DNA of 12,133 nucleotides from positions 1-12,133 of the forward strand of contig JBHGNT010001094.1 in assembly GCA_043228905.1 (NCBI GenBank), given 5' to 3'. Under the pieces are notes generated by a model. It did no database searches, had not been told where the DNA came from, and was given only the letters and a program-made list of their open reading frames with translations. A program made the position numbers and the translations under genes. The DNA is from Azolla caroliniana (taxonomy: Eukaryota > Plantae > Polypodiophyta). Positions 1 to 8,177 of the stretch are shown one piece after another (position 1 is the stretch's first letter; each line of letters begins with the position of its first letter).

Positions 1-2204
1 GATTTGTCTTCCGCGGCTTGTCGTTCGTCCTTCAACTGCTTGATGAGTGCCATTGTATCCACCTCCTGCTCCCGGTAATGTGACAATTGGGTTTGATAAG
101 TGTTCTGCAGCCTTTGCAAGATCATCGTTGCTCTTTCCTTCCTTCTCTTCATAATGCTTCTTACGCAGCTCCATCCATTCTTGCGCAGCTTCCTCTAACA
201 GCGTGGTTCTTTCAGCCCGTCCCTCCGCCAACGCCGTCTCAACTCTATGCACCTCCTGCCTGAGCTCTGCCATCTTTTCTTGCTGTTTCTTATGCTTTGT
301 ATCTAGGTGCTTGTAGTCCCGGTGCAGGTGCTCAAAATCATCGGTCTTCTGCTTCAGCTTTTGGTTGAGTTGCCGGCGAGAGCGGTCTTCCCGGTCCTTC
401 TGCTGACGGAGTTCTTCTTTCAGCCTTTCGATCTCTGTTTCTGCCATCCATTGAAACTTCTCCTTTTCTTGCAACGCCTTCTTTTTCTCCTCCTTCAGCC
501 GGTCATAGGCCTGATGTCCTTTCCGCAGATTCTCTTTTGCCCGGTGGAGGTTCTTAGCAGTCTTTCGTTGCTCTTCTTCTATCGCTTTCTTCAAGTCCCG
601 CTCTCGGGTGCGTAATGCTTCCTCTGCAGCCAATTCATCTCTTAATTTAGCAAGCTCTTTTTCTTGCACCGCCACTATCTCTGGGGTCTTATTGCTATGT
701 ACAGGTGTTGGTGCTTCTTTATTCTGTACATCGATCGGGGTCACCGGTGCTTGGAGCTATGGTCCGGTTAAGGCCATTTTGGCCAATTCTTTTGTGGCCA
801 GGTCCATGTCTTGTTCTAGGCTCTGGATCCTTGACCAGGCCGTCTCTAGTTCTCCGGTTGTGACGAGCAACCGGTCCATCTGCGCTTTCTCTTCCGCCTC
901 GATGTAGTGTACCACTCCGACAATCTGTTCTCCAATCCACCGGAGCCATTGGCTGTCGGTGCCCTGTTGTTGCGTCTGCCCGGAGGGTTGGCTATTGGTG
1001 TAGTTGGTCAGTGGTCGGTTTTGTCCAGTTGCGTCGGGCTGCAACTTTGGCTCTTGTTGGTGACCACTTTGCCGTTCTAGTTGCGGCTCCGTTGGCCGCT
1101 TCGCTTCTGAATGCTCTTGGCTTGCCGGTGGGGTCGGCAACTGTACTTCTGGCGCTTGCATTTCGGGACTTGCCATATCCTGACCCGCCAGTAGAGGTTG
1201 TTGTGCAGGGAGCTCTGTGATTGGTTCTTTTTGAACCGGTTCCGGTTCCATCCTTCTTTGGGTCCGAATGCTCCCCGGCATGTTCGGAGCTGCTTGCCTT
1301 CTGCCACCGCTAAAGGTGCTCTAACGGTTCCTCCTCCGCTTCCTCCTCCTGAGTCCTGATGTTGATTTTCGCTACCAAGGGGTCTGGTGCTTGTTGAACT
1401 GGTTGGCTAAGCCTGATCTGGATTGGTCGTACCGGTGGCTCCTCCTGCATTTCCGCTTGCCGCTTCCTATTGGTGCGCTCTTTCCCGCCTGGTCCTTGTC
1501 GGCCGCCTTCCCTTTAGTTGCCTTAGACGCCAATAGCTGCTGCCGTTTAGAGGCCATTTTCGGGGTGCCTTCTGTTGTTCTTCCCCGCTTCGTGGTCTTG
1601 ACGGGCTCGATAGGTGGTGCCAATAGGGTGAGCCATTGTGCCACCGCCGTCCATATCTTCCGACCCTCCTTCCTCTGACAGAGTCGATGGCCGCAGAGAG
1701 GCCATCCGCAATCAGTACCACCCAGTCCACCTTCAGGCCTTCATATGTGGCTATGATTAAGCCGGCCCGGTTCTGGGGCATGCACGGGGGTCGAGGGTAC
1801 ACATGTCCAAATTCATGGAGCACACAAGCAATCTCTCGAAAGAGTGGATCTTCGTCGCCCTGTGTCCGGTAGGCCTTGCTTGCCAGAGAGTATTCCCCGA
1901 AATATTTTCGAAGTTGTTCCGGGGTAGGGTTGTCGATATTGAAGATTCCCCTTTCCGAAAGGCCAATCAACACATGGATGGCCTCCTCAGTAATCAGCTC
2001 CGTGTCGATTTCTTTGACGATCTTCTCCACCTCCCGGTGCGGTGGCGCCTCCATGATGGTGAGGAAACCCTCTAAGCCGTGTTGCCTTAGCCACATCTTG
2101 GCTGCTTCAGAGAGTGCTTGGCAGTCCATGGCTTCGTCGAGCGCTGGTGAGGGTTGTGTGTGAGGAGTTTCTGTGTGCGTGGGCTCGCGTCTGCTGATCT
2201 TCAA
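1..2204 (-). pseudogene. Extra ORF downstream of host pol, same sense: globular N-terminal domain, Pro/Gln-rich linker, long coiled-coil; disrupted and runs off the window
   Basis: ORFs 1467..2204, 1372..1644 and 757..1281 join through frameshifts. After TAG 757-759 the same frame stays open, giving EKELAKLRDELAAEEALRTRERDLKKAIEEEQRK...EIERLKEELRQQKD... An AAGG duplication near 137-144 shifts the frame. Confidence 0.7.
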
Positions 2205-2450
2205 TTGCCTATCTGTGTGTACTCCTCTGTTCGTGAAATGTGAGGGTTTCTATGTGGCAGGGGCCTTCTTGTTGCATGTTGGCGCCTGTTTTTTTTTTCT
2301 TACCCGCGCGTGTGCACATCGTGTACTAAAATAGAATGTCGTGCGCTGTGGCGGTGGTTTAATACCCTATTAATAGCCCACTACGTACCTTTTCAAAGTG
2401 CCTGTTCACTCATTGTTTTTGCATGTGTCTGTTCACCCCTCGCCCTTGCA

Positions 2451-2552: not shown

Positions 2553-3845
2553 TTAATTCGCATCCGGTCCTACTAGACCCCTATCCGGTCCCGCTGGATG
2601 GCTTGCCGTTGCGTCGTTGTTGTCGTTTGCCGGCTCGTGCTCCCTCTTACCGGCTTCCCGCTTGCCGATTGCTGAACGTGTTGTCATCTCTTCCGACTTA
2701 CCAGTGTCTGGTTCTGTGTCGTCCTTTACTTGTTCAAATGGATTTCTTGGCATGGGTCCATTGTATGGTTTGAGTCGGAACCCGTTGACCCACTTTCCCA
2801 GAACCTCGCCGGCGAGTGTCCCTAATTGGTAGGAACCGTTGAACTCACACGTAATCCAGTATGGTCCGGTCCACCGAAACCGTAGTTTTCCCGGCATCTT
2901 ACCCATCCGAGTCTGGAACACGAGTACCGGCTTACCGATTCCGAACATCTTTTCGTTCCCTTTTCGGTGACGATCCACGAACGCTTTCCTTCGCCGCTGC
3001 TCTAGTTCTAGGTGCATGATGCTGGCTAGCCAGTGTTCTTCCAATTCGCACAACGCGTTTTACCGGATAACTTCTGATTCCTTCTCATTTAGGCGTTCCC
3101 GAATCTGTATCCGTAAACTCGGTACCTGGAACTCTACCGGCATCACTGCTTCCAATCCGAATGCTAGGCGGAACGGTGTTGTGCGGATACTTGTCTTATA
3201 TGCCGTTCGGTAGGCCCAGAGTGCACTGTGCAACTTTGTATCCCAATCCGTCCGGTTCTCATTGACGATTTTCCGCAGGATATTCTGTAGTGTTTTATTT
3301 GTTGACTCTGCTAATCCGTTAGCTTGCGGATAATAGGGAGTGCTCTGTTTGTGCACCACCGCATAAAATGTCGTCAAACTTTCCACTACTTGCCCTAAGA
3401 AGTGCCCACCTTGGTCACTTATGAGCTCTATCGGACATCCATATCGGCACGGGATGCATTCATATAAAATTTTTGCCGTGGATGCCGCGGTGTTGTCGCG
3501 TAGTGCTTTCGCTTCCACCCAGTTCGTGCAGTAATCCGTAGCGACGATCACGTACCGGTTGCCGGTTCTCATTGCCAGTGGTTTGAACGGACCGACAAAA
3601 TCTAGCCCCCATTTCTGAAATGGTTTTACGGTAGCACGGGCTGGTGAGGCATTTTGGCTTGTTCGGTTGGTTGGCCCATTGTTTGACATAGGTCGCATTC
3701 TTTAGCGTACCGGACTGCATCTTTCAATGTAGTCGGCCACCATAGTCCACTCTGCCATATTTTCCTTGCCGTAGCGTCTCCGGCATAATGTCCTCCAGCC
3801 ACGCCGCAGTGTGCCTCGCGCAATATTATTTCCTTTTCGTCACGC
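2553..3845 (-). pseudogene. Host integrase (HHCC zinc-binding domain, DDE core, GPY/F module)
   Basis: EAHCGVAGGHYA...CDLC, PFQKWGLDFVGP, LISDQG, YYPQANGLAESTNK, FRWTGPYWI. Frameshift near 3628 and in-frame TAA at 3060-3062. Confidence 0.95.
3841..3845. repeat. Target site duplication CACGC, left copy (right copy at 7904-7908)
   Basis: Removing the insert plus one copy restores the host frame: GIWRRAVR-DEKEIILREAHCG. One extra A at 7903 separates the right copy from the LTR end. Confidence 0.75.
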
Positions 3846-3908
3846 TATTGTGAAGGATTTGCTTCACGATATAAAAATAAATTTAAATATTGAATTCAAT
3901 AATATTTC

Positions 3909-3970
3909 AAATACTTGAACCCACAACCTTAAAAACCAAGCACAATGTATAAACCACTAGGGTAGGCTAT
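3909..3970 (-). other. tRNA-like module 1 in the LTR (degenerate A box/B box); second copy at 7002-7063
   Basis: Minus strand reads TACCCTAGTGGT...AAGGTTGTGGGTTCAAGT. It is a diverged paralogue of module 2. Confidence 0.55.
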
Positions 3971-4044
3971 TCGTTTTTAGAAATGTTGTTAAGAATGTGC
4001 TTTACTATATAAGAATAAACTTAAATATTGTATTAAGCAAAATT

Positions 4045-4101
4045 GAGAGACTTGAACCCTCAACCTTGTATATCAAGCACAAAGCATACACCACTAAGCT
4101 A
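4045..4101 (-). other. tRNA-like module 2 in the 5' LTR (D, anticodon and T arms; no acceptor stem)
   Basis: Minus strand reads TA GCTT AGTGGTGT ATGC T TTGTG CTTGATA TACAA GGTT GAGGG TTCAAGT CTCTC. Confidence 0.7.
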
Positions 4102-4280
4102 GGTTATTTGTTTTAGAGTTACATCTATCATTATACTTATCCCATATATATCTTGATACATTAGAGCTTAGATGAGCATGATGGCTATCATGCATCACAT
4201 GTAAACCATGTGCGCCAAATGGTGATCATGCATCACATGCATCACATGCACCCCCATATCATTATATGCATGACAGAACC

Positions 4281-4286
4281 TATAAA
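4281..4286 (+). promoter_or_regulatory. Candidate Pol II TATA box of the LTR (copy at 7374-7379)
   Basis: CCTATAAAG near the middle of the LTR, downstream of a CATGCA-rich block. Supported by position and motif only. Confidence 0.45.
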
Positions 4287-4380
4287 GAGAGGCAAGGAAT
4301 TAAGGGATGAATCAAGGGAAAACAGGGTAATGGATCAATCAAGAGAGAGTGAGAAAATAAGACAATCAAGTAGAGAAGAC

Positions 4381-4435
4381 TAGCTCATTGGGTGGAGAAC
4401 CTCTTGTTTCGAAGTTGAGGTCGTGGGTTCAAATC
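4381..4435 (+). other. tRNA-like module 3 in the LTR (sense-strand A box/B box); second copy at 7474-7528
   Basis: TAGCTCATTGG (4381-4391) followed by GAGGTCGTGGGTTCAAATC (B box at 4426-4435), at tRNA-like spacing. Confidence 0.68.
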
Positions 4436-4541
4436 AAGGGTCGATAGAGAATGTGTTAAGTTTGCGATCAAGGATTGTAACGTTGGTAAAATACTACATT
4501 TTTAATATACATCATGTTTATATCATATACTCTTGTTCTTT

Positions 4542-4630
4542 GAATCATACTTTGTCTCAATCTTCTTTCTAGAATCATACTTTGTCTCAATCTTCTTTCT
4601 TGAATCATACATTGTCTCTATCTTTTATCT
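4542..4630 (+). repeat. 30-bp tandem repeat, about 3 copies (GAATCATACTTTGTCTCAATCTTCTTTCT[A/T]); copy at 7635-7723
   Basis: Two near-identical units and one diverged unit, read directly. Confidence 0.9.
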
Positions 4631-4637
4631 ATGATTG

Positions 4638-4672
<35 letters not shown>
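4638..4672 (+). repeat. Compound microsatellite (TC)n(CA)11; copy at 7731-7765
   Basis: Read directly. Same length in both LTRs. Confidence 0.92.
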
Positions 4673-4813
4673 TTACTCGTAACTCTTCTTCTTACTATCC
4701 TTAACCATTCTATCATCACCATACAAGCCTTATTAAAAGTTAAGTTCCTTCAACTCCCCTTGACCTTAGTCCCCGCAACTTCGCCGCACGAACCACAACT
4801 ACCCCGACACATT

Positions 4814-4831
4814 TGGTGAACCCGACGTGAA
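4814..4831 (+). promoter_or_regulatory. Primer binding site complementary to the 3' end of tRNA-Trp
   Basis: TGGTGAACCCGACGTGAA lies 4 nt after the 5' LTR. Its reverse complement TTCACGTCGGGTTCACCA matches the plant cytosolic tRNA-Trp(CCA) 3' end as I recall it. Confidence 0.85.
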
Positions 4832-4848: not shown

Positions 4849-6900
4849 ATGGAGGAGCAAATGAGGCTTATGTGTACGATGATGGAACGAGTGATGCGGG
4901 AACAAGGGATGATGGCAAGCATCGACAAAGCCGTCGACAATATTCTCGCACAAGTAGGAATCTTCGAAGGTATAAATTTAACAAGATTTCTGAAGATTTA
5001 TAATGAAGAAATGCTTAAACGCGGTGTCGACGAAGCTGCAAAAATTAATAGCTTTAGTCGAGTCGCTGTGATTGGGCTACAAGAAAGGATCCAGGAGCTA
5101 CAGAGGGAACATCAGACATGGGCGACTTTCGAAAGAGCATTGCTAAATGAATACAACCTCAACGATATGTCAAGGATGTCAAGGCGAACTTTCATGGATT
5201 GGGTAGAGTCTAATAAACATTTAAGTGTTTTGGAAGTATTAAAAGAGTTTTCGGAAAGATTTGAGCAACTAAATGTTAGAGATAGAAATATAATAGTGCC
5301 AGATAAAGTAATATTGTTTCTACAAGCTACTAATATTAAAGACAGGAAGGACTTGGGAATGCTTTTAGAATATCAGAATAGTCCAAGTGGACTTACCGAA
5401 AACTGGGAGGAGATTAAAAGGGTGTGCGCCCATTTCTGCAAAAGAAAGTTATGGTTTATGGAGTTGCCCGACAGAAATGATGAAGAAACGGGGAACGAGT
5501 CGGGAGAAAAGAAAGTAGAAGAATCACTCTTACACGAATTGGTGAAAGGCATGAAAGACTTGTCAATCAAAGTGACGAAGCTAGAATCGGGACAAAGCTC
5601 AACTTCATCAAGGCAGGGAGGTGGAATGGTCCAAAGGTGTATGTGGTGTGATAGTGTCGACCACCAAAAGAAAGATTGTCAAGAACATAGGGATTCTCTT
5701 AATCATGATAAAATCTACTATCAAGATGGAAAGATTCACTTGACAAAGACTCAACAACCAATCCAGCTCAACTTCGGGAAAGGTGGAATGAAAAAGCTAA
5801 TGGAAGATGCCGAGAGAGAAACGACTCAAGAGATACAATTCGTGACAACCTTAGCAACCTTAGGGTTACGCGTAGAAGACTCATATGGTGGATCTGGCTT
5901 TTGGCAAGATGTGATGGATTATGCAAGAAAAGGGAAGGTTCGAGTGGATGAATTAAAAAGAGCGGGAGATGAAATACGAAACTTCATTGGATGGAATGAT
6001 CTAGTAGACGCGCTATCAGCATTCGCCCAAGTGAATGCACAAGATGTACTAGTGGAAAAGAAGCGAAAGAGAGTTGAGGAGGTTGATCCGTCAATGAAAC
6101 ATGAGACACAAGAACAAGAGAGAAGGGAGATTGAAAAGGATGCTCTTGAGTTGAAAGAAGTTGATAAAGTCAAAGGGAAGACAAACCCAACTTTTAAGCT
6201 TGCTTCGGACACAGAAGCCACGACGGATATAAAACATATGGCAGAGGAAGTTATGAGAGGGTGTGCAGCAACACTCCACGATTTGGATCATGGTATCATC
6301 AACATTGCAAGTGTAAAGAAGATAAATGATGTTGCAATTCATGAAGGGGATAGGAGTCATTATACAAAGAACCATTGGACTCGAGCAACAACAGAGGCGC
6401 CTACAAAAATTGTGGAGCAACAAATTCCTTATATTTCTTTGATAGATCATGGATCAAAAATTAACATGATGTCTTCAGAATGTTATGCTCAAGGAAGGTG
6501 GACAATAGATAATAATCATGGGTCGAAGAAAATAGTTGCAACAAAGATGACGGAGGATCTATTCGGAGCATGTCCCAGTGTGAAAGTAACAATGGGAGAT
6601 GTGTCGGTGGATCAAAATTACTATGTGCAAGATGGATCAACCTACCCCGTCATCCTTGGTCAATCATACAATAGCGTAGTAAGTATGGAAACAAAGGATG
6701 GTGAACCATACATCAACGTAGTAAGGATAGAAACAATTGTGATTGATGATGATTCGACTTTCGTGAGGATCAAGAGTCAGGATGGAAGGAAGAGGGGCCA
6801 GTTCTTAACCATGATGTCTAACCGTGAAAGAAACAAAGAATGGTTGCGGGAACATCCAGCTCAAAAACGGAATGAAGAGTTTTTTCAAGATTTTGGATGA
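4849..6900 (+). CDS. 683-aa Gag-protease polyprotein of the nested element
   Basis: Uninterrupted ORF filling the internal region. Gag-like N-terminus (FEGINLTRFLKIY...TWATFERALL), CCHC knuckle CMWCDSVDHQKKDC (5638-5679), and retropepsin-like LIDHGSKINMM (Asp at 6445) with YPVILGQ. Confidence 0.88.
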   Translation: MEEQMRLMCTMMERVMREQGMMASIDKAVDNILAQVGIFEGINLTRFLKIYNEEMLKRGVDEAAKINSFSRVAVIGLQERIQELQREHQTWATFERALLNEYNLNDMSRMSRRTFMDWVESNKHLSVLEVLKEFSERFEQLNVRDRNIIVPDKVILFLQATNIKDRKDLGMLLEYQNSPSGLTENWEEIKRVCAHFCKRKLWFMELPDRNDEETGNESGEKKVEESLLHELVKGMKDLSIKVTKLESGQSSTSSRQGGGMVQRCMWCDSVDHQKKDCQEHRDSLNHDKIYYQDGKIHLTKTQQPIQLNFGKGGMKKLMEDAERETTQEIQFVTTLATLGLRVEDSYGGSGFWQDVMDYARKGKVRVDELKRAGDEIRNFIGWNDLVDALSAFAQVNAQDVLVEKKRKRVEEVDPSMKHETQEQERREIEKDALELKEVDKVKGKTNPTFKLASDTEATTDIKHMAEEVMRGCAATLHDLDHGIINIASVKKINDVAIHEGDRSHYTKNHWTRATTEAPTKIVEQQIPYISLIDHGSKINMMSSECYAQGRWTIDNNHGSKKIVATKMTEDLFGACPSVKVTMGDVSVDQNYYVQDGSTYPVILGQSYNSVVSMETKDGEPYINVVRIETIVIDDDSTFVRIKSQDGRKRGQFLTMMSNRERNKEWLREHPAQKRNEEFFQDFG

Positions 6901-6926: not shown

Positions 6927-6938
6927 AGAGGGGGTGGG
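6927..6938 (+). promoter_or_regulatory. Polypurine tract
   Basis: AGAGGGGGTGGG directly abuts the TG of the 3' LTR. Confidence 0.88.
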
Positions 6939-7730
6939 TGTCGTGAAGGATTTGCTTCACGATATAAAAATAAATTTAAATATTGAATTCAGTAATATTT
7001 CAAACACTTGAACCCACAACCTTAAAAACCAAGCACAATGTATAAACCACTAGGGTAGGCTATTCGTTTTTAGAAATGTTATTAAGAATGTGCTTTACTA
7101 TATAAGAATAAACTTAAATATTGTATTAAGTAAAATTGAGGGACTTGAACCCTCAACCTTGTATATCAAGCACAAAGCATACACCACTAAGCTAGGTTAT
7201 TTGTTTTAGAGTTATATCTATCATTATACTTATCCCATATATATCTTGATACATTAGAGCTTAGATGAGCATGATGGCTATCATGCATCACATGTAAAGC
7301 ATGTGCGCCAAATGGCGATCATGCATCACATGCATCACATGCACCCCCATATCATTATATGCATGACAGAACCTATAAAGAGAGGCAAGGAATTAAGGGA
7401 TGAATCAAGGGAAAACAGGGTAATGGATCAATCAAGAGAGAGTGAGAAAATATGATAATCAAGTAGAGAAGACTAGCTCATTGGGTGGAGAACCTCTTGT
7501 TTCGAAGTTGAGGTCGTGGGTTCAAATCAAGGGTCGATAGAGAATGTGTTAAGTTTGCGATCAAGGATTGTAAAGTTGGTAAAATATTACATTTTTAATA
7601 TACATCATGTTTATATCATATACTCTTGTTCTTTGAATCATACTTTGTCTCAATCTTCTTTCTAGAATCATACTTTGTCTCAATCTTCTTTCTTGAATCA
7701 TACATTGTCTCTATCTTTTATCTATCATTG

Positions 7731-7765
<35 letters not shown>

Positions 7766-7902
7766 TTACTCGTAACTCTTCTTCTTACTATCCTTAACCA
7801 TTCTATCATCACCATACAAGCCTTATTAAAAGTTAAGTTCCTTCAACTCCCCTTAACCTTAGTCCCCGCGACTTCGCCGCACGAACCACAACTACCCCGA
7901 CA
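6939..7902 (+). repeat. 3' LTR of the nested element (964 bp)
   Basis: TGTCG...CGACA inverted termini, preceded by the PPT. About 17 substitutions and no indels versus the 5' LTR by manual alignment. Confidence 0.95.
7138..7194 (-). other. tRNA-like module 2 in the 3' LTR, with a perfect T-arm
   Basis: Same as the 5' copy, but the T-arm is GAGGG-TTCAAGT-CCCTC with 5/5 Watson-Crick pairs. Confidence 0.72.
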
Positions 7903-7903
7903 A

Positions 7904-8177
7904 CACGCACTGCACGCCGCCATATGCCATTTGCACCTTTGTGGTATAGTGTGTCCTGTAATAGACAGAAGTGCCGGCTTTGAACCGCTAAGCGTTTCCT
8001 TTCGTCTTTGTTCATCTCCTCCGGGGGTAAACCGGTGCTCAGAAATTGGTGCATGTTGGTGAGCCACTTGTCTTCCTCTGCGACCGAACTATCCGTTGCC
8101 GTTTTTGCTGTGACTCTAAACAGCTTTGCATCCGGAATGTCGTTTGGGACTCCGTCACCGGTTTCGCCGGAATCCAA
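7904..8177 (-). pseudogene. Host RNase H-integrase linker, cut by the nested insertion
   Basis: Reads ...FCLLQDTLYHKGANGIWRRAVR and then runs into LTR sequence. The frame resumes at 3845. Confidence 0.85.

Follow-up and report, generated by a model that had tools for sequence, protein, structure and literature searches.

A conserved antisense A/B-box module of tRNA origin in the LTRs of coding Ty3/gypsy elements, likely from mosses

The closest described system is Helenus (TRIMp3), a group of non-coding TRIMs of 311-1263 bp in which part of the LTR is derived from a tRNA; the accessible part of the account gives Selaginella as the only plant case, and proposes Pol III as the promoter system of the element and a SINE insertion as its origin (PMC10886601). 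The same part of that work (Kojima 2024, PMC10886601) expects the autonomous partners of TRIMs to use Pol II LTRs unlike those of the TRIMs, and states that "not a few" Repbase LTRs contain tRNA-like parts, of which only short ones were analysed. Cassandra and Ajax, as outlined there, are TRIMs with a 5S-derived (type 1) Pol III promoter in the LTR, and that of Cassandra makes the element RNA (PMC10886601). In the U3 of simian foamy virus, according to the accessible portion of one report, Pol III miRNA cassettes lie within a Pol II LTR, are transcribed and are dispensable in some conditions (PMC3993851). Both tRNA-derived LTRs and Pol III units in U3 are therefore established.

We analysed a stretch of 12,133 nucleotides (the window) with an LTR element that resembles Helenus in having a tRNA-derived LTR part, conserved around boxes A and B, which forms no functional tRNA. 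Unlike Helenus, the carriers measure 4 kb (gag-pro) or roughly 7.5 kb (gag-pol) and have a TATA box, and the conserved module is antisense; the element in the window is 4057 bp long with a 683-aa ORF, and Pol III appears unable to transcribe it. A Pol III promoter was captured in the LTR as in Cassandra and Ajax, here of the tRNA type and apparently unable to make element RNA. As in the foamy virus, a Pol III-type unit lies inside the U3 of a Pol II LTR and is dispensable; unlike the viral miRNA hairpins, which are transcribed, this putative unit is tRNA-shaped and antisense and gives only a weak hairpin signal. A preliminary description of this DNA knew of no such arrangement. The tRNA-type analogue of Cassandra is already known as Helenus (PMC10886601), but in the literature searched (Repbase and subscription journals being outside its scope) we found no report of tRNA-like modules in coding moss or Phygy LTRs. 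A database-level record of tRNA-like parts in coding LTRs may exist, considering what the accessible text of Kojima says of Repbase.

The element is nested in the RNase H-integrase region of a decayed Ty3/gypsy element of the opposite strand. Its main features are:
3846..4809, plus strand: 5' LTR of 964 bp; two of the five leftmost bases have decayed
6939..7902, plus strand: 3' LTR, 964 bp, ending TG...CA
3842..3845 (left, ACGC, plus strand) and 7903-7906 (right, ACAC): target-site copies of 4 bp with one CpG-type mismatch
4178..4272, plus strand: CATG-rich repeats, conserved, probably the upstream part of the Pol II promoter
4281..4287, plus strand: TATA box, conserved across families (0.079 changes per column-branch unit), 3' copy at 7374-7380
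4814..4830, plus strand: primer-binding site, which we take to be of tRNA-Trp type; same motif in about 40 related loci among the matches listed
4849..6900, plus strand: gag-protease ORF, 683 aa, with internal indels; relatives have DUF4100
6890..6900, plus strand: deletion junction; compared with the autonomous element L071, about 3.4 kb of pol is gone
6927..6938, plus strand: polypurine tract

The two LTRs, offset by 3093, differ at 17 positions (K2P 0.018). Empty sites of the host place the joints at 3841/3843 to 7905-7907, and a target-site duplication of 5-6 bp at ACGC/ACAC is also a possible reading. A 42-bp tandem duplication and other indels at 6657-6736 disturb the protease region, and the frame stays open. 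The host gypsy has extra ORFs 3' of its integrase on its own strand (window 1-2249, minus strand; 260, 187 and >252 aa), the >252-aa frame being coiled-coil-like. Such extra frames resemble those of Athila/OTA-type elements, and no Pfam family scored above its cut-off in them.

Twelve homologues were found for the gag-protease ORF, and the sole named one comes from the liverwort Riccia. Metagenome contigs were scanned as well; the best 80 of 95 confirmed loci include many complete gag-pro/pol elements whose primer-binding site and polypurine tract are those of the window element. All six Pol ORFs scanned contained RT, RH and INT, with no chromo domain and no extra ORF, and the polyprotein fills the internal part. 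Protein scans of viral contigs and of genome contigs revealed no relatives. Against L071 the window element aligns at 92% and then 77% over gag-pro, and the alignment resumes only about 3.4 kb further on, where pol ends, which marks it as a deletion derivative of the TR-GAG type. Three further elements (L073, L074 and L098) likewise lack pol, their gag-pro running directly into the polypurine tract. We therefore regard the window element as a pol-less internal-deletion derivative of an autonomous Phygy-like Ty3/gypsy, and the layout common to these four makes it a spreading non-autonomous subfamily. In four runs, from organisms A and B, thousands of Logan contigs map to the element, which indicates a multi-copy family, depth being no copy number. 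At the deletion, two short stretches that resemble each other, one from the end of gag-pro and one from the end of pol, have been joined. Directly 5' of the polypurine tract, many distant families (L085, L091, L096, L097 and L101) have a conserved motif in common, about 25 nt long and including a small inverted repeat. Six contigs (L096, L145, L103, L091, L093 and L136) run from pol through one LTR into a second gag, and would be tandem LTR-element arrays or collapsed assemblies.

TR-GAG elements, as far as the accessible text describes them, are non-autonomous and keep GAG/PROT while RT, RH and INT are absent (PMC13570524). The window element agrees with them in having LTRs, PBS, PPT and GAG/PROT without RT/RH/INT; unlike them (no tRNA-like LTR modules are given in that part of PMC13570524), it carries modules inherited from the autonomous parent. 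Phygy, a non-chromovirus Ty3/gypsy of Physcomitrella, has a 4-bp NCGN duplication and 81% tRNA-Trp, and the portion of its description at hand mentions no tRNA-like LTR modules (Neumann et al. 2019, PMC6317226). Like Phygy, our elements have no chromodomain and a polyprotein that fills the internal part, with RT-RH-INT in the autonomous relatives. Where Phygy has 4-bp NCGN, the window element has ACGC/ACAC, with one mismatch and in a single copy, and the Trp isotype of its primer is our assumption. These flanks, the primer site (presumably Trp) and the compact layout fit Phygy, a probable affiliation drawn from such features; the gag tree was a quick tree. The family is likely from mosses, and a moss host is what we infer.

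The modules in each LTR are:
3848..4114, no strand: tandem duplication of a 137-bp unit at the U3 start, holding modules 1 and 2
3911..3964, minus strand: module 1, damaged duplicate of module 2 with an A-box mismatch and an internal T5 run at 3931-3935; 3' copy at 7004-7057
4048..4101, minus strand: module 2, an A/B-box unit of tRNA origin in antisense, its core conserved between families; 3' copy at 7141-7194
4039..4042, minus strand: T4 run 5 nt past the module 2 B box, a putative weak terminator for Pol III; a T5 follows 112 nt further on
4381..4436, plus strand: module 3, sense tRNA-like unit 100 nt past the TATA box; 3' copy at 7474-7529

Through a box scan (A/B-box consensus, 1+1 mismatches allowed, 1000 dinucleotide shuffles), we found A/B pairs at 3964-3912 and 4101-4049 on the minus strand and at 4381-4435 on the plus strand, all again at +3093. 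Three pairs per LTR compare with a shuffle mean of 0.005, and none of the 1000 shuffles had two pairs. The spacing from position 8 to position 52 is 43-45 nt, the mode of tRNAs. The preliminary description was thus right about two antisense and one sense module in 964-bp LTRs, about their tRNA spacing and about the TATA box at 4281, which is conserved across families. It had counted three modules; all three pairs are present, but modules 1 and 2, 78% alike, are the units of one 137-bp tandem duplication, which leaves two independent modules and not three. Its picture of three functional modules flanking the promoter did not hold, since the duplicate that forms module 1 is damaged and what module 3 retains is mainly the B box.

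The tRNA likeness was scored with a matrix. An 18-nt motif found 70 loci in viral contigs, mostly ordinary viral tRNAs of many isotypes, so that no isotype can be assigned; the other tRNAs of these loci were the source of the training set (295 collected, 252 unrelated ones used). Module 2 scored 24.1/27.2 bits, like a median tRNA (23.8), module 3 scored 17.7, and module 1 at most 12.4 (its 5' copy). There was no match of at least 18 bits in 171,783 coding bases. Rfam RF00005, the covariance model suggested in the preliminary description, matched module 2 only, with 20.3 and 25.1 bits (below the gathering score of 29) at model positions 8-63 and the acceptor stem absent. The Rfam scan had no 5S match up to E 10. 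Twelve related loci, 57 kb in all, were likewise free of Rfam tRNA matches up to E 10, so the covariance model by itself misses modules of this kind. A functional tRNA gene was ruled out: ARAGORN found 0 tRNAs, the Rfam match covers positions 8-63 only, and there is no covariation.

Thirty related LTR sets were scored with 300 shuffles each, some segments possibly not spanning the whole LTR. The antisense module was found in 11 of them at p up to 0.017 and in two more at 0.05, and the sense module in seven at p<0.05; one or both modules occur in 14 sets, one set is borderline and 15 have none at p<0.05. Since the module-free sets include elements with intact gag-pol (L096, L081/82, L103 and L097), the module is dispensable. 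The modules are no mark of a special gag-pro family, as had been supposed, but are inherited from autonomous gag-pol elements (L071, L085 and L078). Carriers such as L085, L078, L077 and L145 are only 59-63% identical to L071 in Pol, and the cassette of antisense module, CATG repeats, TATA box and sense module, in this order, aligns at about 75% between the window clade and L085, L094, L120 and L128. L075, with Pol 73% identical to L071, has no LTR match, and L096, 73% identical to L085 in Pol, aligns at the right end of the LTR only. Families 59% alike in Pol thus share the U3-TATA cassette while sisters 73% alike do not, which suggests exchange or repeated loss of U3, possibly LTR swapping between families; because of this discordance, the age of the module cannot be read from Pol distance.

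Strong module matches numbered 16 in 38.5 kb beside LTR marks; the remaining non-coding DNA (110.7 kb) had 3 and the coding DNA (171.8 kb) had 0, counts from non-independent loci with the window included. The search for free-standing units yielded those three matches, with one free unit (L102:4-57), a strong tRNA-like sequence in flanking DNA outside the LTR and a candidate free SINE head. The module-bearing U3 unit occurs once in L072 and twice in the window, with a further tandem joint in run X11 (window 7118-7213), and L142 has one LTR with two tandem units of TATA box and sense module. Sense tRNA-like modules of other sequence and position (L091:1819-1873, L093:2886-2940 and L092:3418-3625) suggest more than one capture in the lineage.

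For the conservation analysis, we aligned the cassette in 11 LTR rows, related to each other and mostly from one assembly series, comprising the window and eight loci matched by whole-LTR BLAST; they were chosen without the box score, and L142 and the 28-41 nt matches were left out. Two loci are composite contigs with 5' and 3' LTRs only 77-82% alike. Parsimony changes per column were counted at 11 tRNA-invariant core positions set beforehand. In the antisense module the core changed at 0.04, against 0.202 in the spacer, 0.214 at non-core box positions and 0.196 in the background (TATA box 0.079), five times more slowly than the rest of the alignment (permutation p 1.5e-4, with 0.008 for the A core and 0.004 for the B core; leaving out the window gave 3e-4, and six rows 1.5e-3). 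G/C background columns changed faster, not slower (0.228 vs 0.191). A softer result came from sliding the mask along the alignment, where 7 of 612 placements were equally conserved (31 of 557 with six rows), the lowest lying over the CATG/TATA region. Some aligned copies have broken cores (L120 and L073). In a second clade, whose LTRs cannot be aligned with these, the match is 48 of 51 for core cells compared with an 81% background, the comparisons being pairwise and not independent. The spacing is 43-44 nt in 21/21 antisense copies. The variable-loop AGG is invariant or nearly so across them, and the plain A/B-box model does not predict it. In the sense module the B core is kept (p 0.02-0.05) and the A core is not (p 0.32-0.74).

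Logan variants at >=6% in organisms A, B and C occur at nine sites, seven in the 32-nt spacer, two at box edges and none in the core, a weak test since 0/11 is set against 7/32 and the flanks likewise show no rows; sequencing run X19 gave one contig. The 17 differences between the LTRs are not rarer between the modules.

The preliminary view of the modules as tRNA-like is thereby supported: they are tRNA-derived and family-wide, and the antisense one is constrained at the A/B core bases. Slow change at exactly these bases speaks against a passive relic and agrees with a TFIIIC/Pol III site next to the Pol II promoter. We judge the chances about evenly balanced that module 2 is a selected TFIIIC/Pol III site which helps to keep the LTR Pol II promoter open. 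The antisense unit lies about 180 bp upstream of the TATA box, where it would bind TFIIIC/Pol III and help to keep the element's Pol II promoter accessible. Such a benefit would be analogous to the barrier and nucleosome-clearing effects of tDNAs. Barrier activity of tDNAs is established in yeast and animals. A and B boxes bind TFIIIC, which leads to recruitment of TFIIIB and Pol III, and T-runs terminate transcription, according to the accessible part of PMC13578239. A tRNA or SINE head may have entered U3 once, and the captured unit would then have been held by selection as a DNA promoter; it would have spread with the U3-TATA cassette, probably also through exchange between families, and have been duplicated in tandem in the window's clade. 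Any Pol III product would be at most a short antisense RNA of about 75-180 nt heading to the left end of the LTR. A T4 run lies within 40 nt downstream in 17/21 antisense copies, T-runs being common in AT-rich DNA. In the window copy module 1 is decaying, and module 3 is probably a B-box site at most.

We might also speculate that a lineage of autonomous moss Ty3/gypsy elements domesticated a tRNA gene as a portable anti-silencing barrier, which would shield the Pol II promoter from neighbouring heterochromatin. Selection would have maintained this outward-facing TFIIIC/Pol III promoter in U3, which would have passed between families along with the promoter cassette and multiplied by tandem amplification. 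This version is possible and rather doubtful.

Two other explanations seem unlikely to us, and equally so. The modules may be passive SINE or tRNA relics riding in U3, captured more than once and often lost. Their patchiness (14 of 30 sets positive), the modules at other places and orientations (sense at +140 in L091/93, and L092), the free unit of L102 and the decay of module 1 and of the module 3 A box agree with this. The slow core speaks against it, being found in an alignment that was not box-selected, as do distant antisense groups (L085, L078 and L145), which share orientation and a 3' spacer that is 0.78-0.88 alike compared with about 0.36 when shuffled. A passive relic is already weakened for module 2 and remains a fair reading for module 1. 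A landing pad for Pol III-seeking elements was rejected, no insertion being found just 5' of the antisense A box in the aligned rows.

The other explanation is that a short antisense Pol III RNA is itself selected, with its T-arm extending into a longer 3' hairpin, and acts in trans like the foamy-virus U3 RNAs. In the window, an 11-bp stem folds around the T-loop of module 2, and a significant extended T-arm stem was found in 7/21 antisense copies and 0/10 sense or free copies. The inner three T-stem pairs hold in 18-20 of the 21 antisense copies with two double changes at 52-62; this pair is also where both box-edge Logan variants fall, and their frequencies are similar in two of the three organisms. 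However, 14 of 83 control positions in the same LTRs also pass the stem test, and the mean z is -1.22 for modules vs -0.71 for controls, so the extended hairpin is a hint only, weakly above control. Whole-module folding gave z of -1.29 and -0.87, RNAalifold recovered only 3 pairs on the antisense copies, and spacer and anticodon position vary freely. Cloverleaf pairs over 21 antisense copies reached 49.4% vs 50.0% shuffled; cloverleaf covariation was therefore rejected, only the inner T-stem, which overlaps the B box, being kept. Box cores constrained without a fold are the pattern of a DNA promoter, as expected for a selected TFIIIC/Pol III site.

Selection may instead act on the genomic RNA, the U3 complement of tRNA loops pairing with the primer tRNA. 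HIV-1 U3-R contains a tRNA-like sequence that matches its primer tRNA. In the bipartite primer site of Ty3, as far as the accessible text goes, U3 pairs with the T and D arms of the primer (PMC5371799). Both Ty3 and our elements have a U3 complement to tRNA arms; the conserved blocks correspond to the D-loop, variable loop and T-loop, and the antisense orientation is the required one. Ty3 matches its primer, whereas the modules do not where testable: the match was 23% at positions 49-52 and 29% at 62-73, the positions readable from the PBS, and the module as a copy of the primer tRNA was rejected there. Sister families with the same PBS have no module, and we consider such pairing quite improbable.

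The conserved words could also be Pol II factor sites of the LTR promoter, with tRNA descent incidental. They lie 160-215 nt upstream of the TATA box, within a cassette whose conservation and duplication resemble those of a U3 enhancer. However, the constraint falls at scattered tRNA-invariant positions in both boxes at fixed spacing, neighbouring box positions changing at the background rate (0.214), which makes this very unlikely.

Transcription of the element by Pol III from the sense module, on the pattern of Cassandra and of the proposal for Helenus, is scarcely credible: a sense module does lie 73-100 nt past the TATA box in seven aligned or scored LTRs, but its A-box core is not conserved (p 0.32; the B-box core is moderately so), the element codes for protein and has a conserved TATA box, and the 3.1 kb between the sense modules contain 11 sense-strand runs of T4+, three of them T5+ (the first run 62 nt past the B box; first T5 downstream of module 3 at 4499-4503). 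Given these T-runs and a conserved module that faces outward, Pol III cannot, on sequence grounds, make the genomic RNA, and a Cassandra-type analogue whose RNA comes from Pol III is not supported.

LTR-borne Pol III promoters are described from tiny non-coding TRIMs, in which they would take the place of Pol II. A tRNA-type promoter that is conserved in full-size coding elements and is unable to make their genomic RNA must have another role. This points to a retrotransposon that exploits the machinery of tRNA genes to its own ends, in chromatin or in RNA. If the barrier reading is true, many TFIIIC sites would be scattered through moss genomes, and the finding bears on whether tDNA-type barriers work in plants and on the origin of the TRIMp3 promoters.
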